Source: a bacterium | GTDB lineage: Bacteria > Electryoneota > Electryoneia > Electryoneales > Electryoneaceae | DNA length: 64,000 bases | Direction of reading: 5' to 3' | NCBI GenBank assembly: GCA_963669175.1 | Contig: OY769902.1 | Span: 2,720,001 to 2,784,000 of the forward strand | In this document: positions 5,414-61,131 of the stretch, one piece after another | Layout of the letters: each line of letters opens with the position of its first letter | Position numbering within the stretch: position 1 is the stretch's first letter | Made by a program: the position numbers and the translations under genes | The notes under the pieces: generated by a model | What the model saw: only the letters and a program-made list of their open reading frames with translations | The model's database searches: none | Told to the model about the DNA's origin: nothing

Positions 5414-5637
5414 AAATGCAATAACTGATACTAAAAGACCTACAGATTAAGCGTTATTGACATTTCAGCGAACTTCGCAGTTTCAGGATTCCAAGCTCCT
5501 TTTCTTTCAACGGGATAAGTTCATTCTATAATACAATGAAAAAGAGCATCACAAGCATTTGGAATTTGTGAAAAAAAGTGATAAATTGGCCTATCTCAAG
5601 AAGACCGTACAAGGAACATAGGAACCCTGATCCACCC

Positions 5638-8223
5638 ATGAACTTGAACTCCATTGGTGAACGGATAAAAGAAGTCCCCCTCGAGGAGGAAATGAAGCAT
5701 TCCTACCTCGATTACTCGATGTCAGTAATCGTGTCTCGAGCGCTCCCGGATGTACGCGACGGAATGAAACCGGTCCATCGCCGTATTCTGTTCGGGATGC
5801 ATGAAATGGGCATGCTTCACAACCGGGCTTATAAGAAATCCGCACGTATTGTCGGTGATGTCATGGGTAAGTATCACCCCCATGGCGACTCGGCGATTTA
5901 TGATGCCGTTGTGCGTATGGCGCAGGATTTCAGCCTGCGCTACCCGTTGGTTGACGGCCAGGGGAACTTCGGCAGCATTGACGGTGACGGCGCAGCGGCC
6001 ATGCGTTATACAGAAGCCCGTCTTGCCAAGATCGCTGAAGAAGCGCTTGAAGATATTGGCAAAGAGACTGTCGATTTCGTAAGCAATTACGATGATAGTA
6101 TGCAGGAACCTTCCGTACTGCCTTCCAAGCTGCCGAACCTGCTGATCAATGGTGTTGGCGGTATTGCTGTCGGCATGGCGACAAACATTCCCCCGCATAA
6201 CCTGGGGGAAGTGATTGACGCCTGTTGTCACCTGATTGACAATCCGGAATGTGAGATTGACGACCTGATGAGGTTTGTGGTCGCCCCGGATTTCCCGACA
6301 GGCGGTATCATTTACGGTATCACAGGTGTACGGGAAGGGTATCGCACCGGTCGCGGACGTGTCATCATCCGTGCAAAAGCGCATATCGAAGAAGACAAGC
6401 GCGGCAAAGAGAAAATTGTTGTCACGGAGATTCCATACCAGGTCAACAAAGCTGTCCTGGCCGAGAAAATTGCCGCCCTGGTCAATGAAAAGAAGATCGA
6501 AGGCATCAGCGATATTCGTGACGAGTCGGACCGTGATGGTATCCGCCTGGTTATCGAGCTGAAGAAGGATGCTTACGGCGCGGTCATACTGAACCAGTTG
6601 TACAAGATGACCAGCCTGCAATCCAGTTTCGGTATCAACATGATCGCGTTGGATCATGGTGCTCCGAAGCTGATGAACCTGAAGACCATTCTTCAGAAGT
6701 TTGTCGAGCATCGTCATGAAGTGGTGCTGCGCCGGACGAATTTCGACCTGCGTAAAGCCAAAGAGCGTGAACATATTCTCGAAGGTTTGAAAATTGCGGT
6801 CGACAATATTGACCGTGTCATTCAGATTATTCGACAATCCAGTGGTCCAGAGACAGCGCGCATTGCGTTAATGGAAGAATTTGCTCTTTCAGATCTCCAG
6901 GCCAAGGCGATTCTGGACATGCGTCTGGCCAAACTGACCGGACTGGAAATTCAGAAACTGGAAGAAGAGCTGAAAGCCATTCGTGAATTGATCTCAGAGT
7001 TGGAACGGATTCTGGCATCACGTGATTTGCGGATGGAAATCATCAAAGATGAGCTGAAGGATCTGGAAGAACGCTACGGCGATGAGCGTCGCACGGAAGT
7101 CGTGAAGCATTACGAAGAATTCACCGTGGAAGACATGATCGCCGAAGAAGATATGGTCGTAACCATCAGCCATGCCGGTTACATCAAACGTCAGCCTGTG
7201 ACCAGCTATCGTAAGCAGGGACGGGGAGGACGTGGCAAGACAGGCGCTACGATCAAAGATGAAGATTTCATCGAGCACCTGCTGGTGGCCAGTACTCACG
7301 AGTACATGCTGTTCTTCACGGACAAGGGCCAGATACACTGGTTGAAGGTGTACGACATTCCGCAGTTGGGACGATTGAGCAAGGGCAAAGCGTTGGTAAA
7401 CCTGCTCGAGCTTGGTCCTGACCAGAAACTTGCGGCGTTCGTGTCGGTGAAAGAGTTTGTTGAGGGGCAGTATATCCTGTTGTGTTCACGGCAGGGCATT
7501 GTCAAGAAGACAGAGCTGACCGCTTACTCCAACCCGCGTCGTGGTGGCATTATCGCCATGAATATTCGTGACGACGACGAGTTGCTGGGCGCTTCCATCA
7601 CGGACGGTGATTGCGAGGTTATCCTCGGTACCAGTGGTGGCAAGGCGGTTCGTTTCCGTGAAACCGATGTGCGTGCCATGGGGCGTACAGCGGCTGGTGT
7701 TATCGGTGTGAACCTGCCAAAGGGCCAGGAAGTGGTAGGCATGGTCGTCGTCAGGCGCGCCGGTACACTCCTGGTAGTCACGGATAGAGGCTTCGGCAAG
7801 CGTTCCGATATCGCGGATTATCGCTTGACCAAACGTGGCGCTGGCGGTGTGCTGACATTGAAGACTTCTCCGAAGGTTGGCAACATGATGTCAATTATGG
7901 AGGTGGTCGATGATGATGACCTGATGATTATCACCCAGAAGGGCGTGATGATCAGGTTGTCGATGAAGGATGTCCGAGTCATTGGTCGTGCGACGCAGGG
8001 TGTAAGGTTGATCCGCTTGGATGAAAACGACCAGATATCCTCGATTGCGCGTGTCATGAAGCAGGATGATTCGAACAAGAAACTGGATGAAAACGATAAC
8101 GACGATATCCTCGACACCATCGAAGAGCCGTTGGAAGAAGATGGCGAGAATCAGGATGAGGGCGAGGATTCAGGGCCGGAAGAGGAAGAAGATGCCGGTC
8201 CGGAGGAGGACGAGAACTCCTAA
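5638..8223 (+). CDS. gyrA: DNA gyrase subunit A
   Basis: [39 protein letters not shown], GyrA-box QGRGGRG, acidic tail. ATG 5638 taken as start. Confidence 0.98.
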
Positions 8224-16895: not shown

Positions 16896-18626
16896 ATGAA
16901 GACGACGTGTTTCGCAGGACTGCTGGCGCTGTTAATGATATTCGCAATGTGTGCATTCATCGGATGCGATAATTCAGAGCAAAAGGAAGAAAACGCTTCC
17001 ATTTTGATTGGCACCTGGTATCGTTATTCGCTGAAGGCAGGACCGACCGACCTTTTTGTACCTTCCAAAGTTGTGATGCATGTAGATGGAACCGGCATCA
17101 ATTACACAACAGAAGTACAGGACGGGTTGCCTGTTGACGCTACCAACGAATTTACCTGGGCAGATGATAATGGTACCATGAGTATCTATGGGACCAATGG
17201 AGAACTGCAATATTCTGGCCCCTATTCTTTAAACGAGGATAGTACTTTAATTACAACAATTTATGAGGTAGACAGTTTGGATGTAACGGAAGTGTCCGTA
17301 AAATACTATATCGAGCATGATGAGGCATTGGTGGGGGACTGGTACGGTCTTTCCATTTCACGTGATGGGCAGGAAAATCCAATTCATGGTTGGGAATTTT
17401 CTTTTTCCATCGGCGGTAGCTACTCCTTTGCCGGATGGGGAACTGAGGATACCGGTATATGGGGAACCAATGGTACCCATTTCATGACGATAAGCAACTC
17501 AGATATCAAGGGACGGGATTACTGTCTGTATCGCTATTATCTATCCAACCATGACAGCCTTCTGACGTTTTACGGGTTTGAAGCGGATTGGGATACCGAT
17601 AGCGAAGATCCGACTGTTTACCAGGTGGCGATGGTTTTAACCAAGGGAGCGGGCACGGAGATTGAAATTGATCCGAACCTGGTAGGCGTCTGGTATACGT
17701 TGCATTATGACCTGTTTGACGGTAACACTACAAAGAGATTAAATATCCCAACCAGGCAGATGATGTACAATGATGGCACCGGGATTCGGGAATATTATGA
17801 AGGAGGGACTCTGATTTCGGAAATGTTTGCCTGGGAAGCAGCCAACAACGCCTTGACAGAATATGATACCGATGGACAGATCAGTTATTCTGCGCCGTAT
17901 TACATTGTCGATAATTCGTTTTCCCTGACTTATAATCGGGAGTGGATGGATGGTGAAGACTACACCATGACAATTCTGAGTATTCGAGAATCTGAAGAGA
18001 CTGATGCTTCGCTTGCCGGAGAGTATCTACCGCTTGCTAAAACAGTCAATGGAGTTATTATAGACAGCCAGGAAATAACCCTTATTCATGAGGATGGATC
18101 CGGTTCTTCCGCAAGATTGGAAGGTGGCGCAGTAACAACCGAAGAGTTTACCTGGACCACTGGTGGGGACTATCTGTTCCTGTACAGGGAAGAGATGAAC
18201 GGTCTTGCATGCGTTATGGGATATAATTTTGACGATACTGATGTACTCGACTTCTTCTATTATGATGATATTGATCATATAAACCTGCGCTATATCAGGA
18301 ATACAGGATCATTTGATTCCAGCCTTATCGGTGAATGGAGCCTGACTAACCGGTTGTTGAATGGCGATGAAGATCCTGACGTGCCTGATAGTGCAACACT
18401 TTCTATTTATGGAGACGCAACCGGTTCAAAACTTTGGGGCAGTGCAGAAACTGCATTTTCCCTGAATACGAATTTGCACTGGTTGCTTCAATACGTTGAA
18501 ATCGATGGTGTTCTTGTGGGCAGAGTTTGCGATTACACGGTGAATGAGAACATCCTGGTTCTGGATTATCTGCAGGAAGATGGTACGGCCGGTACAGAAG
18601 TGAGTGAGACTTGGACCAGGCAGTGA
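16896..18626 (+). CDS. Paralogue of the preceding repeat lipoprotein
   Basis: Lipobox FIGC; colinear with 14828 protein (GTWYRYS, RLNIPT, DEDPDVPD, ETWTRQ). Confidence 0.8.
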   Translation: MKTTCFAGLLALLMIFAMCAFIGCDNSEQKEENASILIGTWYRYSLKAGPTDLFVPSKVVMHVDGTGINYTTEVQDGLPVDATNEFTWADDNGTMSIYGTNGELQYSGPYSLNEDSTLITTIYEVDSLDVTEVSVKYYIEHDEALVGDWYGLSISRDGQENPIHGWEFSFSIGGSYSFAGWGTEDTGIWGTNGTHFMTISNSDIKGRDYCLYRYYLSNHDSLLTFYGFEADWDTDSEDPTVYQVAMVLTKGAGTEIEIDPNLVGVWYTLHYDLFDGNTTKRLNIPTRQMMYNDGTGIREYYEGGTLISEMFAWEAANNALTEYDTDGQISYSAPYYIVDNSFSLTYNREWMDGEDYTMTILSIRESEETDASLAGEYLPLAKTVNGVIIDSQEITLIHEDGSGSSARLEGGAVTTEEFTWTTGGDYLFLYREEMNGLACVMGYNFDDTDVLDFFYYDDIDHINLRYIRNTGSFDSSLIGEWSLTNRLLNGDEDPDVPDSATLSIYGDATGSKLWGSAETAFSLNTNLHWLLQYVEIDGVLVGRVCDYTVNENILVLDYLQEDGTAGTEVSETWTRQ

Positions 18627-18655
18627 CAGATTTTTAAGTCAGGTGTCTGCATTTT

Positions 18656-18904
18656 AATCCCGACAGGGATTTTCGAACACAGCACTGGGTCGTGCCGTCT
18701 TTTTGGCGACTACCTTGGGGGATGAGTCACGCCACATATTTACTCCGGTAGGAGTAACCTGACTATTATTAAGGGTATAAAGCACGAGTGTTTAGGCAAC
18801 CCGCTGCCGGGGTTGTGTAACGGGAGGGCGTTCAATTCCCACCGTGAGCGCCAAACAGACGGCGCTGGACGGTGGGCTAAAACAGGGAACCACTACCGTG
18901 GTTC
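18656..18904. repeat. Inverted doublet of three-hairpin REP-like elements (AAACAGAC-loop family)
   Basis: + copy 18796-18904: CAACCC..GGGTTG, CCCACCGT.AGCGCC-AAACAGAC-GGCGCT..ACGGTGGG, CTAAAACAGG, GAACCAC..GTGGTTC. Degenerate - copy 18656-18757 with loop AAAAAGAC. Confidence 0.75.
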
Positions 18905-19020
18905 TCCGATTTCGGCAATTTCTGCCCTTGTGATGATGTTGCTGATACTCCCTCGCCAAACGATTCTGGCACTTTTCAGCTCACTTCAGATCGAAACATC
19001 CTTTCCAACCATCGAAGACG

Positions 19021-19048
19021 AAAAAAGGGGACAACCGAAGTTGTCCCC
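19021..19048 (-). terminator. Intrinsic terminator of citrate synthase
   Basis: A6 then GGGGACAAC-cgaa-GTTGTCCCC. Confidence 0.85.
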
Positions 19049-19073
19049 CTGGAAGAAGCTGTTACTTTGTGTC

Positions 19074-20378
19074 TTACTTGCCGAAGGTATCCTTGATATA
19101 CTTGGAGCCAATGGATTTCGGACGGGTAATGGCTGTGCCGACGGCACGGTTCCAGATGAGCTGGGACAACATACCCATGGAACGGGACACGCTGAACAGC
19201 ACCGTGTAATACTGGAACTCACGCAAGCCGTAGTGATACAGCAGCGCGCCGGAACCGGCATCCACGTTCGGCCAGAAGTTCGCGATCGGGTTCTTGCCCT
19301 CGGCGACGCGTTCTGCGCTGAAGGCCTCGAGGACTTTCGGGACCACGGTGAAGACACGGTCGACAGTCATGAAGACCGGATCGTCAGCCATCATCTTCTT
19401 ACCGAAGATGTTGAAGCCGGTGAAGCGCGGGTCAGTGACACGCAGTACGGCGTGACCGTAACCCGGGACTACCTTGCCGCCACGCAGGGTGTCGAACGCG
19501 AACTTTTCGATGTCTTCTTCTGTCGGGGTGCCGCCGAAGATGTCCATCAGTTCGAGAATCCAGTTCAGGCATTCCTGGTTGGCGAGGCCGTGCAACGGAC
19601 CGGCAAGACCGTTCAGACCGGCAGATACGGAATAATAGGGATCGGACAGGGCCGAGCCTACGGTATGGCAAGTGTTGGCGCTTACATTGCCACCTTCATG
19701 GTCGCAGTGGAAGTGCAGGTACAGACGCATCAGTTCCGCAAAGCCACCATCGGGATCCTTGAGGCCCAGCATGTTGGCGTAGTTGGCGCCCCAGTCGAGA
19801 CCCGGGGTCCAGGGAATGATGTCACCCTTCTTGTAGCGGATACGATAGACACCGGCTGCAATGGACGGCAACTTGGCCAGAATCTGGAGTGAATCTTCAA
19901 GGGTCGGCTTCCAATACTCGGTCTTGGCAGCGCCCTTGTTGTACCATTCCACAAATGCAGATTCTTTCTGCATGACGAGAATGGCGGTGTCAAGCATGGC
20001 CATCGGGTGGCTGTCTTCCGGCATGGCATACAGCACATCCCAGACATAACCCGGCACTTCGGCACGCTTGTCGTATTCCCGCATCAGGTCGAGCTTCGCT
20101 GCTTCATCCGGCTTTTCACCGGTCAGCAACAGGTAAAATGTTTCTTCAGGCCATAAATCCATAATGTCCAGCAGGGGATAGCCCTGAATAATCAATCCCT
20201 TGTCAGGTTCCACCAGGCTGGTTTCACAAATCATGCCTTTTACACCACGCATGCCGCCATAAGCTTGTGCTACGGTGCAATCAGACAATTTTTCCGATCC
20301 ATAGTTCTTGATCATGTCGGCACGATTCTGACGCCACTGGGGGATGAGCTCTTCTAACTTACTGTACAGCTTGGACAT
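19074..20378 (-). CDS. gltA: Citrate (Si)-synthase, eukaryote-like type
   Basis: AYGGMRG, SHPM, DHEGGNVSA, LAGPLHGLANQE, VPGYGHAVLR.TDPR, WPNVDA.SG, RPKS. Confidence 0.95.
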   Translation of the reverse strand: MSKLYSKLEELIPQWRQNRADMIKNYGSEKLSDCTVAQAYGGMRGVKGMICETSLVEPDKGLIIQGYPLLDIMDLWPEETFYLLLTGEKPDEAAKLDLMREYDKRAEVPGYVWDVLYAMPEDSHPMAMLDTAILVMQKESAFVEWYNKGAAKTEYWKPTLEDSLQILAKLPSIAAGVYRIRYKKGDIIPWTPGLDWGANYANMLGLKDPDGGFAELMRLYLHFHCDHEGGNVSANTCHTVGSALSDPYYSVSAGLNGLAGPLHGLANQECLNWILELMDIFGGTPTEEDIEKFAFDTLRGGKVVPGYGHAVLRVTDPRFTGFNIFGKKMMADDPVFMTVDRVFTVVPKVLEAFSAERVAEGKNPIANFWPNVDAGSGALLYHYGLREFQYYTVLFSVSRSMGMLSQLIWNRAVGTAITRPKSIGSKYIKDTFGK

Positions 20379-20605
20379 GTTGTCCTCCCATGTTGTAAGG
20401 GATCCCGTTTTGGTATAAGACTACAACTACCCGTTTGCATCATATCGATAACCGCCAAAAAGACGGAGTATCGTGTATATCAAGTATTACCGATTATGTT
20501 CAACCTGTGTGTGGAACAGCGGTCCTCCTGAAGTTATGCCGGTAGCCAGTGCACGGGACCGTACCGCCCGCGCGGAAAGCTGCTGTGTGGGATTACACAA
20601 GCGAC

Positions 20606-20623
20606 TCGTAAAATATTTCACAT
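20606..20623. promoter_or_regulatory. Candidate Rex operator in the gltA/recR divergent region
   Basis: TCGTAAAATATTTCACAT, 3 mismatches to the Rex consensus. Confidence 0.35.
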
Positions 20624-20933
20624 ACCAGTCAGAGTCAAGTTCACCCTCCTCGCTGAGAAAATCAAGGAAAAGTGTGCTACTGATTGATATTTTTGATGAT
20701 AGGAATTTTACCAAATCGTGAATCTCATTTTTTTATTGAGAAAACAATCCCCGGGAGAAACGAGCCAGTTAGTGGATGTGAAAAAAAACATGCCTTTTCT
20801 ATTCCTGTCGCAGCCTGTTTCATGGGAAAGAATAGCACGGCTATTTTGCTACAGCCCGCTTTACTGTGTACCTTATATTTTCTGGTTGTTCGAACGTATC
20901 CCTGATGAGCACACGTCTACAAGGAAGCATACC

Positions 20934-21542
20934 ATGTCCGCAGGATTACCCCCAGCAGTAGTTGAATTGCAGAATGAACTGTCACGGTTGCCGTCAATCG
21001 GGAAAAAGTCGGCGCTGAGAATGGCTTTGCACCTGTTGAAGTCAGACAGAGAAGCAGCGGAACGTCTGGCACGCGCAATCATCGACGTCAAAGATAAAGT
21101 GCAGGTCTGCTCAATCTGCGGGTTCCTGTCTGATCGTGATCCCTGCCCGATTTGCACCGATGTTAAACGGGACAGTTCCCTTGTCTGTGTTGTGGAAGCG
21201 CCGGGGGATATCATCGCGCTTGAGAAAGGGTCCATTTTCCATGGCAAATACCATGTCCTGGGGGGAGCGCTGGCCCCGCTGGATGGGGTCGGCCCGGATG
21301 ACCTGCGTATCGAAGAATTGAAAGAACGTGTGGAGCAGGAAGGAATCACCGAAGCGATCATCGCCACCAATCCCACCCCGGAAGGTGAACAGACCGCGAT
21401 GTACCTGGCACGTGAGCTTCGTCCGATGGGAGTGAAGGTGTCACGTATCGCGCGTGGTATCCCGGTTGGCAGTGATCTGGAAAACGCTGATGACCTGACG
21501 CTGACTCGAGCCCTGGAGGGACGAATTCAATTTGATGATTGA
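20934..21542 (+). CDS. recR: Recombination mediator RecR
   Basis: LPSIGKKSALR, C4 zinc finger CSIC...CPIC, YHVLGG, ATNPTPEGE.TA, RIARGIPVG. ATG 20934 behind AAGGA. Confidence 0.97.
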   Translation: MSAGLPPAVVELQNELSRLPSIGKKSALRMALHLLKSDREAAERLARAIIDVKDKVQVCSICGFLSDRDPCPICTDVKRDSSLVCVVEAPGDIIALEKGSIFHGKYHVLGGALAPLDGVGPDDLRIEELKERVEQEGITEAIIATNPTPEGEQTAMYLARELRPMGVKVSRIARGIPVGSDLENADDLTLTRALEGRIQFDD

Positions 21543-21834
21543 TGTGTGGTTCAAAGAGGGGAAAGAGTGGAGGCCTGTACGCTTTTAGCAAAGTGCATGG
21601 CCCGATTTGCCGGAAGTGTGACAAAATACTCTTGAAATGATGACAACCTTTATGAGTCGTCGTCCTGTGATGCGAATAATGAGCAAGTCGGGTTTTGGCG
21701 AGCTGGGGTGGCCCGATGCCCAAGTGAGTCATTTTTCGCTCTTGTTGCAGCAGAAATACTCTCACTGTGGCTTTCATTCCATCCGGTACGTATGAGAATA
21801 TCGGGATAACGAATACAACTATAGATGGGATTCA

Positions 21835-22743
21835 ATGTTGATCATCTTGACACACGTGCTTCAGCCTGTTATCAGGTTACTCCTGCTGATCGGAACCATG
21901 CTTCTGACGCCAACCGGGGAGGGAATGCCAGGGAGCGCGGACGGAGGCGGCATTCGTCAACCGCCTGATTTTTGGTATGTCTGGCCGCGAGAAACGACTC
22001 CGTATACTGCCTTGCAACAACGCTTCCCGCCGCCAGCAGGTTTTGAACGTGTCGATGTGGACAGCGGCTCGTTCGGTGCGTGGTTGCGTGGGCTTCCCTT
22101 GAAGGAGCGCGGCGCACGTGTGAAATACTATAACGGTATCTGGAAGCCGTTTCAGCAGCATCATGCGGCGGTAATCGACATTGATTGCGGCAACCGTGAC
22201 CTTCAGCAATGTGCCGATGCCGCCATCCGTCTGCACGCCGAGTATCTCCACGACACCGGGCACGACACAGCCATCCAGTACAACTTCACCAGCGGCGACC
22301 GTTGCGCCTGGAAAGACTGGAAACAGGGCATCCGTCCCCGGGTAAAAGGCAATACGGTTACCTTCGAGAAAACCAGCGCCTCCGATTCCAGCTACGCCGC
22401 TTTCCGTGCCTACCTCAACATGGTCTTCCGTTATGCCGGCACTTTATCGCTGAGCCGTGATCTGGAAACCGTGGATGCCGATGAAGTGCGTCCGGGTGAT
22501 GTTTTCGTCCAGGGCGGATCGCCAGGACACGCTGTGCTGGTGGTGGACGTCGCGGTAAATCTGTCAACAGGCCAAAAAGCAATGCTGCTGGCCCAGGGAT
22601 ACACGCCCGCCCAGGATATCCACGTCCTGAAGAATCATGGCAATCGTTCCCTTAGCCCGTGGTACATCGTCGGGGACGGCCCCGAACTGACTACCCCGGA
22701 ATGGACCTTCTCCTGGCAGGATGCAAAGCGGTTTCCAGGTTGA
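21835..22743 (+). CDS. DUF4846-like exported protein
   Basis: PPPAGFERV, DLQQCADA.IRL.AEYL, YAGTLSL, PGDVFVQGGSPGHA, AQ.Y.PAQDIHVL. Confidence 0.8.
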   Translation: MLIILTHVLQPVIRLLLLIGTMLLTPTGEGMPGSADGGGIRQPPDFWYVWPRETTPYTALQQRFPPPAGFERVDVDSGSFGAWLRGLPLKERGARVKYYNGIWKPFQQHHAAVIDIDCGNRDLQQCADAAIRLHAEYLHDTGHDTAIQYNFTSGDRCAWKDWKQGIRPRVKGNTVTFEKTSASDSSYAAFRAYLNMVFRYAGTLSLSRDLETVDADEVRPGDVFVQGGSPGHAVLVVDVAVNLSTGQKAMLLAQGYTPAQDIHVLKNHGNRSLSPWYIVGDGPELTTPEWTFSWQDAKRFPG

Positions 22744-22819
22744 AATACTTTGTAATAGAGCGAAGTCGACGACTGTTATGTTGGATCAAAGATATTTCTG
22801 GGAAAACGCAATTTGCATA

Positions 22820-23425
22820 TTAGGATTCTTTTCTGTCTCGCTTGGCAATTGCTTCTTTTTTCGATTCTGGTAACTTTGCGTAAAGTGCATCAATTTCTTT
22901 TGGTACAGTAATCATCTGGTGGGCAATTTGGTTGACAAGGCTAAATAGCCCGAGAGCTGTTTCACGATCATCATCCAAGTCTATTACACCAGGATGAACA
23001 GCGTCATTACCTACAACCCGAACAACATCCAATGCTTTCTGGATATTATGGTGAAGACCATCTTGCACTAGGTTGGCAATCATGTCATTCAAGTTCCCTC
23101 GCTGGCCTAAGTAAATACAGAGATGTTGAATTGCTAAGCGTAGCAACGCAGCAGCACCTTTTGGGGACAAACGAACAATATCACGAGCTTCAGAATAGCA
23201 TTGAAGCACTTGATTTGGGAGATCCTTATTCGGCAAGGGTGCAGAACTTTCAGTTGGATATACCATCGTCTTATTTACCCAAAGTGCAAAATCACCACAC
23301 CGTTGACAGCTTGATACCCAATATCTTCCATAATTATTCCAACTTTGATGTGCAAAGGCATTGCAATGTGGACAATTGAAGGCATCAATTCTAAATGCAG
23401 GAAAAACGAATTCTGCCGCTACCAT
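22820..23425 (-). CDS. DUF4145 (HEPN-like) protein with N-terminal zinc ribbon
   Basis: CPHC...CQRC; YSEAR, AAALLRLAIQ.L, VRVVGNDAVH (RxxxNxxxH). AT-richer than neighbours. Confidence 0.85.
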   Translation of the reverse strand: MVAAEFVFPAFRIDAFNCPHCNAFAHQSWNNYGRYWVSSCQRCGDFALWVNKTMVYPTESSAPLPNKDLPNQVLQCYSEARDIVRLSPKGAAALLRLAIQHLCIYLGQRGNLNDMIANLVQDGLHHNIQKALDVVRVVGNDAVHPGVIDLDDDRETALGLFSLVNQIAHQMITVPKEIDALYAKLPESKKEAIAKRDRKES

Positions 23426-23671
23426 AAATTATCCTTTCTGAGTTTCCTAGTTCATCCCTCCATACCGTATGTCCATCCAACCAGTCCAACCTAGATCGGG
23501 GACGTGGGTAGTCAAGAGCGGTAGAAGGTTTTCTGTATGGGCACCTTGTCACAGTATCCAAGCAGTGATGAAAGCGTTTGAACTCTCAATGGCAAATAAG
23601 ATCTTCATTCCTTAGGATTATTTAAGCTTACCTTCGTTTGTCTACCTCAAGATCATAGTTTTTTTATATAA

Positions 23672-24688
23672 TTACATTGAATCGACGCCTGATGAGGAAC
23701 CTGATCTTGTCAACATCTCTATCACCGATTTTGCCACTGGTGATCCCTGCTCACCTGCCCCCGAAGTGAAGCCAGTAGGCTGAGGTGCATAGATGCAGGA
23801 TGCAGCGTGACTCAATACAATATCCCGATCTGATTGTTTGCCTGCAGCCTCTACCATTGCACGGTGGGTTAGTAATGCATTCTGGCGGTGGCGATTAATA
23901 ACGGCATTGTGGTTATTCGCGAGAAAATTGCGGCCTGCCATGTATAAAAGGTAAAATAGGGTACTAAAAGCAATCAGTTTGCCTGCTGCAAGCTGTATGG
24001 CATCATATAGATTATCTGGACCAGGAATCCAACCGGAAATGAACACAATACTCAATGCGAGCAAAGCCAGAGCAATCCCGATGGTTATGTTTCTCCATCG
24101 TCCTGCTGACTTATCATATTCTTCAGCTGCACCCTTAAAATGCTCTGAAAGTTGAGTCACACCTTGTTCGTGAAGCGCTTTTTTCAGTTCGCTCAGAAGA
24201 TTATTTGCTTCGTCTGATTTTTCAATTAACTGACCAATTATATCATCAGATTTCTTATCTATATTTCCGAGCACAACATCCGCTTTTCTTTCCAATTCTT
24301 GAAAATCTGTTGTAGATGCAGCACTATAAGAAATTAGATCATGTGTAAAATCATAAATATTAATGGCAAAATTAGTTATAGGAGTCATAATATTGGATTT
24401 ATTCTGCGATGGATTGCCTGTTGTAGGATCAAATTTTAATGCAGAATCAATATGAGATACAAGTTCTGTTAAATGTGAATGTAAATTATTAAGTTTCTGG
24501 TTTGATAGATTTTCTACAATACTGATAGGTATTTTCTTAAAACTATTAACTATTATTTGCATAGATGGAAGTGCATCCTCAAATGATAGCACTCCTAATT
24601 CATCTTTACGAACAATAGTGTTTGGATCAAAATTATGAATTCTCTCCAAATTGCTTGTAATACTGTTTATTAGCTGCTTTCTATTCAT
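23672..24688 (-). CDS. Hypothetical coiled-coil protein with two C-terminal TM helices
   Basis: GGAGG RBS, 338-aa AT-rich ORF, two hydrophobic segments followed by HNAVINRHRQNAL. Confidence 0.8.
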   Translation of the reverse strand: MNRKQLINSITSNLERIHNFDPNTIVRKDELGVLSFEDALPSMQIIVNSFKKIPISIVENLSNQKLNNLHSHLTELVSHIDSALKFDPTTGNPSQNKSNIMTPITNFAINIYDFTHDLISYSAASTTDFQELERKADVVLGNIDKKSDDIIGQLIEKSDEANNLLSELKKALHEQGVTQLSEHFKGAAEEYDKSAGRWRNITIGIALALLALSIVFISGWIPGPDNLYDAIQLAAGKLIAFSTLFYLLYMAGRNFLANNHNAVINRHRQNALLTHRAMVEAAGKQSDRDIVLSHAASCIYAPQPTGFTSGAGEQGSPVAKSVIEMLTRSGSSSGVDSM

Positions 24689-24689
24689 G

Positions 24690-24899
24690 CTAGCCTCCTT
24701 TCAAACTGAGATATACTCCTCGCCTGATTCGAATCCTCTTCAGCTCGTTCGCAATTGCTCTGACTTGATCTAAGGCATCTTTAAAGTCATCGAATACTCA
24801 GTCGTACGAACAGGCTATAAATGCTTGATTGAATAGATCAGGCAAAGAGTCGATAGTTGCGCTTCAAACTTCAGTGGCAATGGTATTCCACAGTTCAAT
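24690..24899 (-). pseudogene. Possible decayed ORF fragment
   Basis: Reads IELWNTIATEV*SATIDSLPDLFNQAFIACSYD*VFDDFKDALDQVRAIANELKRIRIRRGVYLSLKGG*, ending just before the next ATG. Confidence 0.3.
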
Positions 24900-25138
24900 T
24901 GGTTAGAAGTTAGGCTGCCGCCAGATTGGTGTCAACAGCTTTAATCACAAATACGTATTTCATTTTGTTGTATGATACCTCTTTCATGTCTACACGTAAC
25001 TACTTTTACATCTGTCTCCGCACCATTCCATGTGTTCATTTTTAAGAGTTGCGGTAGTTATTATGAGAAACTATGACAGACTGTAGTAATTGAGACTTTA
25101 TTCTGATTTGCTTTAAAACAGTAGTCACTCAAATACTC

Positions 25139-25212
25139 GGGACAGACTAGAGGAAAACTAGAGAGGAAAACTGGGGACAGACGGTAGTGGAAAACTGGGG
25201 ACAGACGGTAGT
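25139..25212. repeat. GGGACAGAC repeats including a perfect 24-bp tandem duplication
   Basis: GGAAAACTGGGGACAGACGGTAGT at 25165-25188 and 25189-25212; third GGGACAGAC at 25139. Confidence 0.85.
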
Positions 25213-25731
25213 TATTGGGTGATTGGGCCAGACTGCTGGACAGTCTGGTTCACACACAGGACAGCACAACCACCCTAGTGCGAGTACGCCGGGCCACGCG
25301 ATCCGGTTTCATCAACAGGCTGATGAAGTGTGCTGCAAGAACAGGTTTCCCAGGACTCGTATTCTTGCCAACAAAGCCCCTGCCCCTAAGAGCCAGTTTC
25401 TCTTGCAATTCGCTGCTAAAGCGTCTAAGTTTGAAAATCCATTGCGAGAGAGGCGAGAGAGGCGTTTGATGTTTACTTACGTTACCCACATTCCCACAAC
25501 CCTGACCTGCTGACCCACGGCAGACGGCCGCACGCCTGTCACCGTGGCGGCCGAACACTCGCAAGGGATTCCCAAGAAGTTTTCGATTTCATTTCTACCT
25601 TTTACCCCGTGTTCATGTCCGCCGGAACAGACGTCGGTATTCTCCGTCGGTCAGAATGGTGCGAGTGAGTTTTTTTTGAAAGGAGTTGGTACCACGTGAC
25701 GTAAACCAGCGTCACAACGAGTGAGAGAACA

Positions 25732-27090
25732 ATGAGTACGAACACGGTGAGATTGCTACCTAAACGAGAATTGTCACGAGAAGTCTGGAAACTTTCCGGA
25801 CCGGTTGTGATCGGAATGATCAGCCAGACGCTGATGAATACGGTTGATACGGCCATGGTGGGCCGTCTCGGCGCTGCCCAGCTTGCAGCGACCGGGATGG
25901 GCGGGATCATGTGCTGGACCTTCATCGCCGGATTGGGCGCCCTGCACGTCGGCGTTCAGGCGATTGCGGCACGGCGTTTTGGCGAAAAGAAAATGCACGA
26001 AGCAGGCAAAGTGCTGGATAATGCGATCCTGCTGGCTGTCCTGCTTGGTTTCGGAGGAGCTGCGATTGTCATCCCGCTCCTGCATTTCCTGATGCCGTTC
26101 CTGGTAAACGATCAGGTCGTCGCAGGCTACACATCCGATTACATCGATTACCGTCTGATGGGACTGGTTTCCGTACTGCTGATCCGTGCCTTCATGGGCT
26201 TTTTCGATGGAGTCGGTCAGACCAATATGCACATGCGGGTAGCTATCCTGGCTAATGCGCTGAACCTGTTCTTCAACTGGATATTCATCTACGGCAACCT
26301 TGGGATGCCACGGATGGAAACCGGCGGTGCGGGAATCGCGTCCACGCTTGGGTCTACGTTTGGGGCGCTGTATTTCTTCCTGATGGCGTTGAAGAAGGAG
26401 CGGCGTGAACCCTTGCAGTATTTCCAGCCCGGAAACCTGAGCGGGTATGTCCGCAAACGGATCCTCCGGCTTGCTATCCCCTCAAGCATTCACGCGTTTC
26501 TCGTGATGCTCGGGTTCAGTGTATTCGTCACGCTGATGGCGCAACTGGGCACGATTGAAATGGCGGCGACAAACGTGGCGCATACCATTTCCTCATTGTC
26601 ATGGTTGCCCGGCGCGGGGATTGGGATTGGTGTCGCCACGCTCATCGGCCAGAAACTGGGCGAGAAGAATGCGCGGATGGCTGAAGAATATGGCTGGGAA
26701 GCGGTTCGCCTGGGCGTACTGATCATGGGAACCATGGGCGCGATTTATGTGATCTTCGCGCGGCCGGTCCTGGGATTGTTCTCCGATGACAGCATGGTTA
26801 TTGAGGCTGCTATTGTACCGTTACGGATTATCGGGATGTTGCAGATGTTCGATGCTGTCGGGATGGTGTTGAGCTTCGCGTTGGACGGCGCCGGCATGAA
26901 CAAATGGATCATGTGGACAGAAATTTCCATAAACTGGCTCCTGTTCCTGCCCTTGACCTGGGTACTCTCGTTCGTCTTTCCCTTCGGGGTCAATGGCGGA
27001 TTCGTGGCGATGGGATTGTATATCCTCGCCTTCGCCTTTATGTGCTTCCTGAAGTTCAAAGGGGGGAGCTGGAAACTGGCTGAAGTGTAA
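25732..27090 (+). CDS. MATE family efflux transporter
   Basis: VDTAMVGRLG...LAA, N.FFNWIFIYGNLGMP.M...GAGIAS, LIGQKLG, ~12 TM segments. Confidence 0.95.
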   Translation: MSTNTVRLLPKRELSREVWKLSGPVVIGMISQTLMNTVDTAMVGRLGAAQLAATGMGGIMCWTFIAGLGALHVGVQAIAARRFGEKKMHEAGKVLDNAILLAVLLGFGGAAIVIPLLHFLMPFLVNDQVVAGYTSDYIDYRLMGLVSVLLIRAFMGFFDGVGQTNMHMRVAILANALNLFFNWIFIYGNLGMPRMETGGAGIASTLGSTFGALYFFLMALKKERREPLQYFQPGNLSGYVRKRILRLAIPSSIHAFLVMLGFSVFVTLMAQLGTIEMAATNVAHTISSLSWLPGAGIGIGVATLIGQKLGEKNARMAEEYGWEAVRLGVLIMGTMGAIYVIFARPVLGLFSDDSMVIEAAIVPLRIIGMLQMFDAVGMVLSFALDGAGMNKWIMWTEISINWLLFLPLTWVLSFVFPFGVNGGFVAMGLYILAFAFMCFLKFKGGSWKLAEV

Positions 27091-27168
27091 ACGCTTGTGG
27101 ATTGCAGAATACTGGTTGAACAATTGATGAGGGATTGGCTGAAAGGTCAATCCCTTGCTTATGTTATG

Positions 27169-27211
27169 GAAAAACAAGGGACTGCCCCGTAGTGGTCTGT
27201 CCCTGTTTTTC
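27169..27211. repeat. GGGAC...GTCCC palindrome, possibly also the MATE terminator
   Basis: GAAAAACAaGGGAC...GTCCCTGTTTTTC. Confidence 0.6.
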
Positions 27212-27218
27212 AGGCTTG

Positions 27219-27349
27219 ACAGAGGATGACAGGATAGTAAGATGTCAAGGATAAAGACTCGATTGAATGTACAGGATGGTTAAGGATGGGAAGCTCACTT
27301 GAATGTACAGGATAGCAAGGATGGTAAAGATAGTAAGGATATAAAGATG
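27219..27349. repeat. Degenerate 9-mer (A/C)AGGAT repeats
   Basis: acaggatag caaggatgg taaagatag taaggatat; TTGAATGTACAGGAT occurs twice. Confidence 0.7.
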
Positions 27350-27523
27350 AAAATTATTGTACAGTCCGAAAGTCTTTACCGTTTCAGGTTAGCGGCAGCT
27401 TCTTTCTGGCACTGAACATCTTTCTTGTATAAGGGCCGGTTCTCCCCGATTGCACTCTTTTGAAAATATATTTACTTGTGTTAGCAGGCTTTAGCCTGCT
27501 CCTCTTAGCCCCCGGCTTTAGCC

Positions 27524-27919
27524 CTGTCTCTTGCTCACATCTTCGTGTTTCTGCCACCCCAGAGGGGGTGGTATATTTTAGCGTAGGGTTGACGCTGTCT
27601 GTTTAGCGTCTACCCTACGAAAAAGATCAAACCTTATCTCAACCCTGGAAGGGTTGCATAACGTATAATTTACACCCAATTGGTTTGTATAGAATATAAA
27701 ATGCGTTATTTCCTGTATTTATTGAACGTACTAATATGAATCGCGTATTATGCAACCCTTCCAGGGTTGATTATTCGTTAGAATACCTGACATAGTGTAC
27801 AGGCCAAACAGACGGCCTGTACACTATGCTAAAATAGGGAATCCCGCCGGGATTCTAAAAATGCTATGTCCACAACTCTTTTACTGATACAGCTTTCAGA
27901 AGATGTGGGTAAGAGACAG
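27524..27919. mobile_element. 396-bp non-autonomous MITE with IS50/Tn5-like ends
   Basis: TIRs CTGTCTCTTGCTCACATCT (27524-42) and AGATGTGGGTAAGAGACAG (27901-19); direct repeat GGCTTTAGCC at 27514-23 and 27920-29. Confidence 0.85.
27554..27855. repeat. Inverted doublet of AAACAGAC-loop three-hairpin elements inside the MITE
   Basis: - copy 27554-27657 (CGTAGGGTaGACGCT-AAACAGAC-AGCGTCaACCCTACG); + copy 27752-27855 (CATAGTGTACAGGCC-AAACAGAC-GGCCTGTACACTATG). Confidence 0.85.
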
Positions 27920-28261
27920 GGCTTTAGCCGGGGGAACAAGGACAACAACGGTTCGAGCGCCCTTCAGGGTGCTTTCTTGATTCGTATTGATTCTATAACG
28001 CAAAAGCACGCTAAAGCGCGCTCATAGCTTTTGTTATATCCATCCACCCGGCTAAAGCCGGGTGCTAAGAGGAGCCTGCTGAAGCAGGCTAGATACTGTC
28101 GAATCAGCAACAACTTTTGGGAATCCCTATAGTTCCCGAAAATCTTTACCGTTTCAGGTTGGCAGCAGTCTCTTTCAGCCTGCCTATGCGTCTTTTCTTT
28201 GCGCCTTTGTTGCCTGCTCACGAATTGTGTTGTCGGGGGGCTTTGCGTGAAATAATCAGGT

Positions 28262-28510
28262 TCAGATATACTGCATGAGTTGAATGGTCGTCTGCGCCTG
28301 GTTGTTCTGGGCGAAATGGGACGCAACCTGGTTAAAGAACTGGCCGACATGGACCAGAACATCCAGTAGGGTCAGATCATAATAGATGAACACGAATACC
28401 ATCAACCAGAATGAAATCGCCAGTGTCATCCCGGTCACGCCAAGCAGGGACACACGTCTTCCGGATCCTTGTTCGTCTTCCTGTGGTCTTCTGTTTGTTT
28501 TCAGATTCAT
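28262..28510 (-). CDS. Small membrane hypothetical protein
   Basis: GGGAGG RBS 5 nt before the ATG, single TM segment. Confidence 0.55.
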   Translation of the reverse strand: MNLKTNRRPQEDEQGSGRRVSLLGVTGMTLAISFWLMVFVFIYYDLTLLDVLVHVGQFFNQVASHFAQNNQAQTTIQLMQYI

Positions 28511-51992: not shown

Positions 51993-52934
51993 ATGCGATG
52001 CGAAAAAGCGATTATCCTCACAATTATTCTGGTGGGCATTCTACTGATCATGAGCCCCGCTCATGCCCAACTGGAATCTCCGTCTTCTCCGGCCGGTTTT
52101 ATTCGTTATTCCTTTGAGGAAGGTTGGAACGCGATTTCCCTGCCATTCCTGCAAGAAGATGAAGACCTGGAAGATGTCTTCACGGATGACTTGAGCCTGG
52201 AATGTTTCCTGACCGGAGGCGCTACAGAAGAAGAGTCGGATCGTGTGCTGGTATTCGATCCTGAATTCGGTCAATGGATTTCAGCATGGATTGATGAGGA
52301 TGGCGATTGGCAGGGATCCCTGACGTCACGTGATCCACGATATGACTGGGTGTATTGGGTACAGATCCGTGAGGGCCATCAGAGGAACGATGAACTGCTG
52401 GTGCGTGGACTCGGATGTAATGAACCTATGATAGATCGTGGCGTATATCAGCCGGGTATGCATTTCATCAGCCCGATCTGGGCGGGAGAGTTTGAATTAA
52501 GGTTTTCTGGTCTTGAAGAGGCCGGTTATTCTTTTGACAGCATTTTGCCCCAGGATCCAGACGAATATACAGGCGAAGTTTCCAACTATATCCTTGAATT
52601 TGACGGGAATGGTTGGCACAGGGTGGCTTACTCCACAAGTTTGTTGAGGATCGATAAATGGGATGGAAATCTTAATGCCTTTACGCCAGGGAAAGCTTAT
52701 ATACTTGTTATTCATGAGCCAATCGACTGGTATTATTACCGGCGTCCCGATTTAGCAGGACCTACTGCAACGAACGCTACCCAATCGAACTCTGAAAGGC
52801 CAGTCAGGAAAGCAGTCAGCGTAACTTCATACCGTGTGTCTGATTTGCCGCCCTTGCCCGAAGTCCAGCGTCACCAGACAAGGAATGAATCTTCTTCACC
52901 AGCACAATCAATACGGGAGAGGAAGGAACAATGA
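51993..52934 (+). CDS. Exported hypothetical protein (GWN.ISLP-type repeat domain)
   Basis: Signal peptide ending AHA; two related halves (W.G.L...; G..Y/W..); ATGA overlap with the next gene. Confidence 0.7.
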   Translation: MRCEKAIILTIILVGILLIMSPAHAQLESPSSPAGFIRYSFEEGWNAISLPFLQEDEDLEDVFTDDLSLECFLTGGATEEESDRVLVFDPEFGQWISAWIDEDGDWQGSLTSRDPRYDWVYWVQIREGHQRNDELLVRGLGCNEPMIDRGVYQPGMHFISPIWAGEFELRFSGLEEAGYSFDSILPQDPDEYTGEVSNYILEFDGNGWHRVAYSTSLLRIDKWDGNLNAFTPGKAYILVIHEPIDWYYYRRPDLAGPTATNATQSNSERPVRKAVSVTSYRVSDLPPLPEVQRHQTRNESSSPAQSIRERKEQ

Positions 52935-54223
52935 GACGCTTTGTAAGGCTACTCCTGGTACTGGTGCTGTTATCTTTCTGCACATCGGTTAATGCGCAGC
53001 CGGACATCATTCCCCATTTCATCGCTGCGTATGATACGATTGACTTGGGGTATCTTTACGCCCCGGACCTGACGAACAGAGAGTGGCTGGAGGAGGAAAG
53101 CTGCTGGCAGATAATTGTATCCACGGAAGATGACCAATTAAACCCGGTCAGCGTTGATTCAGCAACCCTTGGACAGCCGACAGGGGACGATAAGGTTATC
53201 TATCAAAGTGTAGTAGGGTATACAGGTTCGAATGGATGCTCACTTATCGGAGCGGTGATATTAGATACTGACTACATTGGCAGACCTGTGTTTATTCGTG
53301 TTTTCAAGCAACTACACCCCACTTTTAATGGAGTTTTCACAGAAAGCTACAAACCGGGGTATCTGGAGAATCCTGAAGAATCCCACTTCAGTTTTGTACC
53401 GATTCTATCCAGAGGTCATGGTGGCTTCATGGATATGTGGCTTGATTCGACCGGGATTGCCCCGCGCGTCTATGTTGATTCGCTTGACCTTTCGCAAACT
53501 GAATATTCCCGAATATTTGGTGACACGGGTACCATTACGCTGTCAGCTTCTAATCCCTTATCCATACGTACAGTCTTGGTGCGAGTATTTGATGGAGCCC
53601 CCTCGGACTGGAATATGTCCGAACCACCCCTTGAACGAACAGTCGCAGTTTCGATGGAAAAGATAGAGTATGAAACGGGCAATGGTGAGTTTGCCCTGAA
53701 TTTAAAGTTCACTGAGGAAGAATTGGCTGCTCGCTATGGTGGTGAATATGAACCTGAAGATATGATTTTATACGAGTTCAATCCTCGAACAAGTCATGGG
53801 ATAACCTACAATTGGCATGAGTTGACTTCTTCCGTGAGTCAGGGGGAAGGAAGCACATGGATTGTTACAAGAACAAGATCCTCTTTGCCTATTGGAGGCC
53901 GGTTTACCATCGCTCCACGCAATCTGGTTGGCGTGGAAGAAGAGCCGGTCGCTACAATCACATCCTATCAACTGCATTCCGCGTACCCGAACCCGTTCAA
54001 TCCTACCACACGCTTGACACTGGACTTACCTCAACGTCAAACTGCCGTGCTCGAGGTGTACAACATGCTGGGCCGACGAGTCGCAACAGTTTACCAGGGT
54101 GACTTGCCAATGGGGCGTCATGAGTTTACGTTTGACGCTACAAGATTGGCCAGCGGAGTTTACTTTGCGGTTGCCCAGGCAGGGTCGTATCATGCCGTGA
54201 AGAAACTCGTGGTCCTCAAGTAA
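52931..54223 (+). CDS. Secreted protein with T9SS type-A C-terminal sorting domain
   Basis: Signal peptide; C-terminus AYPNPFNPTT...VYNMLGR.V...LASGVYF...KKLVVLK. Confidence 0.88.
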   Translation: MRRFVRLLLVLVLLSFCTSVNAQPDIIPHFIAAYDTIDLGYLYAPDLTNREWLEEESCWQIIVSTEDDQLNPVSVDSATLGQPTGDDKVIYQSVVGYTGSNGCSLIGAVILDTDYIGRPVFIRVFKQLHPTFNGVFTESYKPGYLENPEESHFSFVPILSRGHGGFMDMWLDSTGIAPRVYVDSLDLSQTEYSRIFGDTGTITLSASNPLSIRTVLVRVFDGAPSDWNMSEPPLERTVAVSMEKIEYETGNGEFALNLKFTEEELAARYGGEYEPEDMILYEFNPRTSHGITYNWHELTSSVSQGEGSTWIVTRTRSSLPIGGRFTIAPRNLVGVEEEPVATITSYQLHSAYPNPFNPTTRLTLDLPQRQTAVLEVYNMLGRRVATVYQGDLPMGRHEFTFDATRLASGVYFAVAQAGSYHAVKKLVVLK

Positions 54224-58437: not shown

Positions 58438-58590
58438 TTCACAAGATTCACAGGTATGATTCACAAGATGGACAGGATGAATTGATCAAGATGGACAGGA
58501 TGGGACGGATTGCTTGACTGGATGGGGGGATTTCTTAACAGGATAGGAATTTCCTGACAGGATGATAGGATAGAAGGATATCAAGGATAT
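58437..58590. repeat. Degenerate CA(A/G)GAT short repeats
   Basis: gattcacaagattcacagg...caagatggacaggatg (twice)...caggatgataggatagaaggatatcaaggat. Confidence 0.7.
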
Positions 58591-58754: not shown

Positions 58755-58900
58755 GTGCCTGTCCCGCATTTTCGGGTGAGAATGTCATGTGTACCGGCCT
58801 CACCACACAGAAAAGGGTACAGCTTCCTTTTCCACTACCATCTTTACCAGTGTCATGCGTTAGCACGAGGAAAAGGATTCCGTCCCCTTTTCTTGATCCC
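58755..58900 (+). repeat. 146-bp direct repeat, copy 1
   Basis: Matches 60840-60985 with ~11 mismatches by manual alignment; contains CTGTCCC and CGTCCCC cores. Confidence 0.9.
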
Positions 58901-58947
58901 CCAGAGGTGTCATCCCCGTGTCACAGACTTTCGCAGAATGGAAAACA

Positions 58948-59099
58948 CTCTCATCCCAGCGAAGCAAACTGTCTCAGAATCACTGATGCTCTCATCCCAG
59001 CGAAGCAAACTGTCTCAGATTAGAAAACACTCTCATCCCAGCGAAGCAGACTGTCTCAGAATCACTGATGCTCTCATCCCAGCGAAGGCTGGGATCCAG
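58948..59099 (+). repeat. 41-bp-period tandem of CTCTCATCCCAGCGAAG ending in a complete REP hairpin
   Basis: Units at 58948, 58989, 59030, 59071; the last reads ATCCCAGC-gaag-GCTGGGAT-CCAG. Confidence 0.9.
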
Positions 59100-59151
59100 G
59101 CAAGTGTCGACATAATAATAAGTTGGACTTTATTACGACTCTCAATGAACA

Positions 59152-60614: not shown

Positions 60615-60666
60615 AATGAACAGCGTTTCTTGAGAATACTTAACCTCTTGTAATATCGCAATATGA

Positions 60667-60737
60667 CTGGATCCCAGCCTTCGCTGGGATGAGAGTATGC
60701 CTATTTTACGACAGTCTGGAAGGCTGGGATCCAGGCA
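60667..60737 (-). repeat. Inverted partner REP hairpin plus a half copy
   Basis: CTGGATCCCAGCCTTCGCTGGGATGAGAG (60667-95) is the reverse complement of 59071-99; GAAGGCTGGGATCCAGGCA near 60720. Confidence 0.88.
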
Positions 60738-60839: not shown

Positions 60840-60985
60840 GTGCCTGTCCCTCATTTTCGGGTGAGAATGCCATGTGTAACGGCCTCACCACACAGAAAAG
60901 GGTACAGCTTCCTTTTCCAATACCATCTTTTACAGTGTGAAACGTGAGCGCGAGGAAAAGGATTCCGTCCCCTTTTCTTGATCCC
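60840..60985 (+). repeat. 146-bp direct repeat, copy 2
   Basis: See 58755-58900. Confidence 0.9.
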
Positions 60986-61131
60986 TTTTTCGCAGAAGAT
61001 GAGTCGCATTCACAAACACCGAATCACATGAAATTCGTGCTTTTACTACCACATGCTTATTGATCTGAGCCGTTACGATTTTATACCTTACCCAATCAGC
61101 TATCCTCCAACCCCAAATCGTGAGGAATCTT

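Follow-up and report, generated by a model that had tools for sequence, protein, structure and literature searches.

What kind of element keeps three hairpins paired while the sequence of its stems changes from copy to copy? The question is raised by two inverted doublets of hairpin-forming repeats in the 64-kb stretch of bacterial DNA analysed here (the window), which an initial annotation had taken for a structure-defined element, possibly an undescribed REPIN class or ncRNA motif. Our overall explanation, which we hold with a probability of roughly 0.7, is that the four repeats represent paired arms, belonging to a Tn5-like miniature transposon and to one relative that lacks the transposon ends.

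Four arms whose stems stay paired

All four proposed copies were confirmed: A (18656-18757, minus strand), B (18796-18904, plus), C (27554-27657, minus) and D (27752-27855, plus). The three-hairpin architecture ascribed to all of them holds for B, C and D, each of which folds accordingly, with z-scores of -3.7, -5.6 and -8.9, respectively (relative to 200 shuffles). Hairpin 1 of these arms has a stem of 7 bp, hairpin 2 a stem of 14-15 bp closed by the 8-nt loop AAACAGAC, and hairpin 3 a stem of 7-9 bp. Folding and a covariance model place arm B at 18796-18906 on the plus strand (hairpin 1, 18797-18815; hairpin 2, 18838-18876, loop 18853-18860; hairpin 3, 18885-18906) and arm D at 27752-27857 on the plus strand (hairpin 1, 27753-27769; hairpin 2, 27791-27805/27814-27828, loop 27806-27813; hairpin 3, 27839-27855). 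Arm C, detected by a repeat search as well, occupies 27552-27657 on the minus strand (in plus-strand coordinates, hairpin 3, 27554-27571; hairpin 2, 27582-27596/27605-27619, loop 27597-27604; hairpin 1, 27640-27656). Arm A (18653-18758, minus strand) is degenerate: fold and model show that it keeps hairpin 1 (18740-18757) and hairpin 3 (18656-18671), whereas its hairpin 2 is broken and the loop reads AAAAAGAC (18697-18704). The doublets do surround AT-rich spacers, with a GC content of 0.35 (37 nt) in doublet 1 (18653-18906) and 0.27 (94 nt; 27658-27751) in doublet 2, compared with 0.49 in the window.

A covariance model trained on B, C and D only recovered the held-out arm A at 40.6 bits (E 2.6e-8). 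With filters off, this model found no fifth copy in the 64-kb window, which thus holds two loci with four arms; next in rank came C and D read on their reverse strands, followed by matches with E of at least 0.23. Sequence-level alignment was significant for C-D (z 16) and B-D (z 11) and the repeat search reported arms, such that the prediction that sequence-based repeat finders would miss the family is only partly borne out. The octamer AAACAGAC is not significant by itself, with 4 matches in the window compared with 2.1 expected and at least 4 in 16 of 100 shuffles; the fourth match, at 60214 inside a DDE_5 transposase gene, was set aside as chance.

In an alignment of the four copies that was fitted to the structure, and hence favours the pairing figures, standard pairs fill 106 of 110 cells (96.4%), and both sides have changed in 15 of the 28 base pairs, confirming that the stems stay paired despite sequence change. 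Variation on one side only affects 1/28 pairs, G-U cells account for 2/110 with all other standard pairs being Watson-Crick, and all 4 unpaired cells belong to copy A. None of five pairing measures was reached in any of 500 shuffles, and pairing fell to 31-43% when the 3' partners were shifted by 1-3 columns. The stems do not, as had been described, differ almost completely: in the paired columns, any two copies are 58-71% identical (32/55 to 39/55), and the differences are compensated. Each arm carries three hairpins that compensated changes have kept paired. The most conserved parts are the unpaired loop of hairpin 2, within an invariant apex (GCY-AAACAGAC-RGC), and the linker between hairpins 2 and 3 (TTTTAG read inward), whereas the spacer between hairpins 1 and 2 varies freely, a pattern that points to a sequence-specific constraint.

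A complete miniature transposon around doublet 2

Doublet 2 forms the inner part of a non-autonomous element (MITE) that is complete, with 396 bp at 27524-27919; the element lacks a transposase gene and is inserted in the hairpin loop of an older palindrome. Its 21-nt terminal inverted repeats read CTGTCTCTTGCTCACATCTTC on the left (27524-27544, plus strand) and CTGTCTCTTACCCACATCTTC on the right (27899-27919, minus strand), and are identical to each other at 19/21 bases by hand count. They are flanked by an identical 10-mer, the target-site duplication GGCTTTAGCC (27514-27523 and 27920-27929, both plus strand). The 21-nt pattern, written from these two ends, has 2 matches in the window and 0 in 100 shuffles, and no further 21-mer of the window exceeds 15/21 against it. 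Terminal inverted repeats and target-site duplication are both those of a MITE, as are the size of 396 bp, within a range of about 50-1000 bp for bacterial MITEs, and the coding content, the longest overlapping stop-to-stop frame having 72 aa and running into the flank; small size, lack of a transposase gene and an AT-rich interior agree with MITE definitions given in PMC10969869 and PMC4596501. When the element is folded (z -15.5), its ends pair and its arms form local hairpins. The arms do not fold onto each other, and their hairpins 2 and 3 lack complementarity between the arms.

The surrounding palindrome (27478-28096) is about 215 bp long without the insert, and its arms of 42 nt are 86% complementary. 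The intact partner arm at 28045-28064 carries the same hairpin with a single GGCTTTAGCC core, and so stands in for the empty site. When 27524-27929 (the element and one copy of the repeat) was removed in silico, the palindrome arms paired over their whole extent and through the joint (z -11), with a 16-bp helix spanning the joint and a long continuous hairpin restored. Kinship between the palindrome and arms A-D, which resemble each other in having a comparable linker and more than one hairpin per arm, was considered and rejected (sequence similarity not significant, z -0.6 to 1.0; model scores of only 7-13 bits), and we treat the palindrome as a separate family.

Both ends of the element begin with CTGTCTCTT and, by a hand check against the table in PMC2266710, satisfy all 7 fixed positions (C1, T2, T9, C13, A14, A16 and T19) of the IS50-subgroup end consensus CW------Y---CA-A--W- given there. 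By hand count the two ends match the Tn5 mosaic end, a string that occurs in PMC3347997 and PMC2566895, at 16 and 17 of 19 positions. At 10 bp as read, the duplication differs from the direct repeats of 8-9 bp listed for the IS50 subgroup, and falls in the length class of the IS4 family, for which PMC2266710 gives "about 10 bp"; the palindromic target would allow 9 bp if one end of the element is placed a base farther outward, and 8 bp if both are. In a further difference from IS50/Tn5, none of the 52 ORFs in the window encodes a cognate, IS50/Tn5-type transposase; the sole transposase in the window is the DDE_5 protein, whose ends are unrelated to those of the element. Inverted 21-nt ends and a 10-bp duplication are marks of DDE cut-and-paste movement and not of HUH/RAYT single-strand transposition; the view that the repeats are mobile thus stands for doublet 2, and the mechanism proposed for them does not. 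We suggest that an IS50-type DDE transposase, the product of a gene at another place in the genome, would have mobilised the element in trans by cut-and-paste.

Around doublet 1 we found no remnant of the terminal repeats by alignment, inverted-repeat search or 21-mer scan, and the repeat search found no target duplication; the sole 21-mer there that matches at 13/21 or better is a chance-level 13/21 at 19014-19034, inside the citrate synthase terminator. Terminal repeats and duplication are seen on one copy only, and doublet 1 would be a diverged relative whose terminal repeats were lost or never present. Partial copies without terminal or direct repeats, nesting in other repeats and terminator-like MITEs are among the properties of bacterial MITEs described in PMC10969869.

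What the arms may do, and competing readings

Both loci sit between convergent genes. The two flanking genes with clear 3' ends already carry terminator-like hairpins of their own (19050-19025 and 27128-27157), which counts against our explanation. A terminator consensus scan flagged the GC-rich stem of hairpin 3 with its T-rich tail, reading inward, in three of the four copies (C, 27552-27573, plus strand; D, 27855-27839, minus; B, 18904-18887, minus; not in A). These matches suggest that the outer hairpin and the TTTTAG linker, read from outside to inside, form a predicted intrinsic terminator on each side, which may insulate the interior, or the transposase gene of the parent IS, from transcription entering either flank. 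Between convergent genes, the element would act as a portable two-way terminator. The weakest step in this scheme concerns hairpin 2, whose apex is a putative recognition site for a protein or nuclease. A complementarity between its loop and the terminal repeats was dropped, as it covers only 4 nt by eye.

In a stronger form of this idea, the arm with its three hairpins would itself be a structured module with a function, and a protein would recognise its apex and linker in RNA or in extruded DNA. An IS50-type transposon would then either need the arm for its movement or use it to control that movement, or else the module would spread and persist independently of Tn5-like ends, a possibility suggested by copy B, which is intact but end-less. 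We consider this form improbable at present. To our knowledge, structured subterminal arms have not been described for an IS50-subgroup element, no such case appears among the papers listed by a literature search, and we know of no subterminal structural requirement in the IS4 family.

A reading compatible with the miniature transposon is that divergent small RNAs or leaders are transcribed outward from the AT-rich centre, such that the covariation would reflect selection on RNA folding. This is consistent with the strong compensated changes and with sigma-70-like matches that stop right at hairpin 1 of the outward-reading arms, namely the weak match at 27722-27751 (plus strand) facing arm D and that at 18794-18765 (minus strand) facing arm A; moreover, promoters and small RNAs borne by MITEs are reported in PMC10969869. 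Both matches, however, reach only 9/12, a level no commoner in the sequence than in shuffles (4 found and 2.8 expected for the former, 1 and 0.6 for the latter), and hairpin 3 read outward has no U-tract, so that no terminator closes such an RNA. With almost only Watson-Crick pairs and G-U in 2/110 cells, there is also no strand signal, and nothing points to RNA over DNA. The ncRNA motif proposed initially found no Rfam counterpart either, even at E up to 5: the whole window gave 0 matches at the gathering threshold, and the best hits in E-value mode scored 22 bits where the threshold is 42, and 16 where it is 37. Taken together, we judge outward transcripts of this kind unlikely.

Pairing can also be maintained without any function, since template switching during replication can correct quasi-palindromes at the DNA level. 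Compensated pairing would then be a by-product of such correction, with an apex and linker that mutate more slowly or are young. Pairs that are Watson-Crick on both strands, the near lack of one-sided intermediates and the hairpin 2 of D, a perfect 15-bp palindrome, are what correction would leave behind. On the other hand, it is the unpaired loop and linker that are most conserved, next to a variable spacer, and pairing does decay in copy A. Functionless hairpins thus seem to us a doubtful account, on a par with outward transcripts.

Least probable is the REPIN-like reading, in which a RAYT (Y1 HUH) transposase acts on the three-hairpin units as ssDNA and the Tn5-like ends of doublet 2 are incidental: inverted doublets of hairpin-forming units, extragenic and between convergent genes, are typical of REPs (PMC3733652), doublet 1 lacks terminal repeats and almost purely Watson-Crick pairs are expected of DNA hairpins, but the same source defines a REP as a 20-40-bp palindromic unit, one end of which bears an unpaired tag, GTAG or CGTC, whereas the units here span about 105 nt with three hairpins, fold locally, carry no such tag at any hairpin end (GTAG occurs only within the stem of C, and CGTC is confined to the opposite strand of A, B and D, where stem and loop join) and, in doublet 2, lie within DDE-type ends and a target duplication. 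The window also contains no RAYT gene, with no Y1 transposase domain found among its 52 ORFs.

Relation to other mobile repeats

The Tn5-like miniature transposon resembles several known families in its habits. The Correia elements of Neisseria and SPRITE and BOX of pneumococcus are likewise small, intergenic mobile repeats with stable stem-loops in their transcripts and promoter- or terminator-like modules, often nested (PMC10969869), yet none is related to the element in sequence; in Correia, furthermore, the terminal repeats form the hairpin, whereas here each arm has three local hairpins. Chunjie, a MITE found in Geobacter uraniireducens, occurs as full copies with terminal and direct repeats beside many partial ones (PMC10969869), comparable to doublet 2 and doublet 1, although Chunjie copies are alike in sequence, having been found by BLAST, while the stems described here differ by compensated changes.

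A scan of 185,579 species genomes with a narrow pattern (hairpin 2 apex and linker), in a collection that does not include the host genome, of an Electryonea-like lineage, returned 28 loci, none of them a family member; the three arms of the window that fit the pattern were not among them. These loci look like chance, with motif-adjacent stems mostly of 2-7 bp (maximum 10) and a best model score of 16.3 bits (E 0.054). BLAST searches of 18400-19100 against phages and of 27300-28100 against plasmids gave no match, and a protein search for further copies by way of spurious ORFs, using a frame with its start within the right arm, gave no candidate but is uninformative, since the collection lacks the window's own frame as well.

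These results provide a clean, internally documented transposition of a Tn5-type miniature element, with its ends, its duplication and a paralogous empty site, in a barely studied lineage related to Candidatus Electryonea, and a known class of mobile DNA accounts for what appeared to be a repeat family defined by structure alone. It is unusual for a MITE to have compensated stems, an invariant apex in both arms, and these same features in a copy without ends. With four arms, the idea of a structural signal is a lead and not a result; if these features are upheld in many copies, they would point to a signal in the structure that serves the element or its host, for example as a portable two-way terminator.

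Paired architecture of the four arms

The three-hairpin unit is present as four arms, forming doublet 1 (A and B) and doublet 2 (C and D), and all four copies were located where the initial annotation had placed them. Arms B (18796-18906, plus strand), C (27552-27657, minus strand) and D (27752-27857, plus strand) each fold alone into three hairpins, with fold energies 3.7 to 8.9 SD lower than those of shuffled sequence. The architecture proposed for all copies stands for these three but is incomplete in arm A (18653-18758, minus strand), which keeps hairpins 1 and 3 around a broken middle stem. In B, C and D, hairpin 1, nearest the doublet centre, has 7 bp (CAACCC..GGGTTG), hairpin 2 has a 14-15-bp stem closing the loop AAACAGAC, and hairpin 3 has 7-9 bp and is preceded by the linker GCTAAAAYA.

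A covariance model trained on B, C and D only recovered the held-out arm A (40.6 bits, E 2.6e-8) and, with filters off, found no fifth arm in the 64 kb. Both the model score and sequence similarity (z of 11 for B-D and 4.7 for A-D) place A and B in the same family as C and D. In a four-row alignment fitted to the model, standard pairs occupied 106 of 110 cells, all 4 unpaired cells belonging to arm A, and both sides had changed in 15 of the 28 pairs; none of 500 shuffles matched these values, and pairing fell to 31-43% once partners were shifted by 1-3 columns. The stems do stay paired despite their differences, as the initial annotation held, but its description of stems that differ almost completely was overstated, identity between copies being 58-71% with the differences compensated. 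An architecture with maintained pairing is common to both arms at both loci. Only 2 of the 110 cells are G-U, so pairing is equally good on either strand and does not point to RNA over DNA.

The apex of hairpin 2, GCY-AAACAGAC-RGC, is invariant in B, C and D and carries one change in A, with the stem below it free to vary. This pattern is that of a hairpin recognised by a protein or nuclease, here a hypothetical partner. The same loop on a 10-11-bp stem, followed by CTAAAA, occurs in an Ascidiaceihabitans genome (L027:1993-2022); similarity to the model at this locus is confined to hairpin 2 (16.1 bits, E 0.06), so it is probably a chance match. A scan across species genomes with a narrow pattern returned chance matches only and no further copies of the family.

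The element enclosing doublet 2

Doublet 2 lies within a 396-bp miniature element (MITE; 27524-27919) bounded by 21-mers that are inverted copies of one another (27524-27544, plus strand; 27899-27919, minus strand), both starting CTGTCTCTT. A degenerate pattern written from the two ends had 2 matches in the window, the ends themselves, and 0 in 100 shuffles, and every other 21-mer in the window reached at most 15/21. Directly outside both ends, the 10-mer GGCTTTAGCC is duplicated (27514-27523 and 27920-27929). The element sits in a palindromic repeat that is separate and older (27478-28096), with 42-nt arms showing 86% complementarity. The right arm of this host palindrome is intact, with the hairpin CACCCGGC-TAAA-GCCGGGTG (28045-28064) holding the 10-mer core once; in the left arm the same hairpin is split by the 396-bp insert and the core is present twice. 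With 27524-27929 deleted in silico, the host palindrome folded without a break into one long hairpin, in which a 16-bp helix spans the joint (z -11). This paralogous empty site and the target-site duplication together argue strongly for the arrival of 27524-27919 by transposition.

Both ends agree with the IS50-subgroup (IS4 family) end consensus of De Palmenaer et al. (PMC2266710), CW------Y---CA-A--W-, at each of its seven fixed positions. Counted by hand, their agreement with the Tn5 mosaic end, a string that occurs in PMC3347997 and PMC2566895, is 16/19 and 17/19 positions. Sequencing-adapter contamination was rejected: the two ends are identical neither to the adapter nor to one another, and a target duplication adjoins them. 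The duplication reads 10 bp; De Palmenaer et al. list 8-9 bp in the IS50 subgroup and "about 10 bp" across the IS4 family. The target being palindromic, moving both ends outward by one base would give 8 bp, and moving one end would give 9 bp. A transposase gene does not fit inside 396 bp, and comparison of the window's 52 ORFs with Pfam found no IS50-type transposase; the sole transposase among them, a DDE_5 protein (59178-60590), has inverted repeats of its own that are unrelated to the MITE ends. The element is non-autonomous, of IS50 type, and inserted into another repeat.

Around A and B we found no terminal repeat or duplication. The outer flanks of A and D show some similarity for ~40 nt past hairpin 3, after which it ends, and arm B keeps three intact hairpins and compensated stems though its ends are gone, with arm A decayed. 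A MITE review (PMC10969869) describes families in which many copies are partial and have no terminal or direct repeats, so that a decayed or truncated copy would be the simplest reading of doublet 1.

Other repeats and genes

The host palindrome (27478-27523 and 27930-28096, ~215 bp) forms one long hairpin without its insert. Small hairpins within it have GGCTTTAGCC or GGCTAAAGCC as their core, the 13-mer occurring four times in the region, and its linker, TCCTCTTAG, resembles that of the MITE; it has no terminal CTGTCTCTT ends and looks REPIN-like or MITE-like. The whole repeat nest is enclosed by a 41-nt direct repeat (88% identical; 27366-27406 and 28136-28176) and lies in the 1.2-kb gap that separates the MatE gene from a small ORF on the minus strand (28262-28510). 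Two intergenic regions, 27210-27345 and 58440-58590, hold clusters of short ACAGGAT(A/G)-type repeats (for example ACAGGATAGTAAG and ACAGGATAGCAAG), which could be protein-binding-site arrays or remnants of another repeat.

The DDE_5 transposase (470 aa) belongs to an insertion sequence (59068-60698) whose 57-nt inverted repeats are 81% complementary. The insertion sequence follows a series of 41-nt tandem repeats (58910-59073) in which its end motif, CTCATCCCAGCGAAG, recurs, and it is flanked by a 146-nt direct repeat (92% identical; 58755-58900 and 60840-60985) that could represent another repeat family or duplication of the target region. A large NACHT-type NTPase gene (61120-63951) has a C-terminal pentapeptide-repeat region with 15-nt periodicity (63494-63882) and a perfect 26-nt inverted repeat (63473-63528). 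GyrA (5578-8223) shares 78% identity with its counterpart in Candidatus Electryonea clarkiae and 88% with another protein, and a T9SS sorting domain (52931-54223) fits an FCB-group bacterium.

Alternative readings and possible role

The arms may have an undescribed RNA role; a known RNA family was rejected, Rfam giving no match, either at gathering scores or at E up to 5. Correction of quasi-palindromes at the DNA level, instead of selection, could also have produced the compensated pairs, but the conserved unpaired apex and linker, together with the decay of arm A, argue against a purely neutral account. The REPIN/RAYT system, raised as a possibility by the initial annotation, fails the tests run: the units lack the GTAG or CGTC tag included in the REP definition of PMC3733652 and greatly exceed the size of a REP, folding is local within each arm and not between the arms, the window's 52 ORFs include no RAYT/Y1 gene by Pfam, and both a DDE-type end and a duplication mark the complete copy.

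An IS50-type transposase made elsewhere would move the MITE by cut-and-paste. Read inward, hairpin 3 and its conserved linker (TATATTTTAG, CCTATTTTAG, CCTGTTTTAG) were flagged as terminator-like in three of the four copies, and a terminator role would plausibly account for the conservation of the linker. With such an inward-facing terminator just within each end, transcription from outside would be kept out of the interior, or out of the transposase gene in the parent, and the element would terminate transcription in both directions where it lies between convergent genes. Both loci do sit between convergent genes, but the citrate synthase and MatE genes each already own a terminator-like hairpin, which counts against the need for one in the MITE. 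Weak outward promoter-like matches adjoin hairpin 1 in arms D and A, at a frequency equal to chance.

The three-hairpin feature is real: a MITE with Tn5-type ends, from a poorly studied lineage, that adds a new family to a known kind of element. Its hairpin arms are unusually well maintained and merit a genome-wide look.
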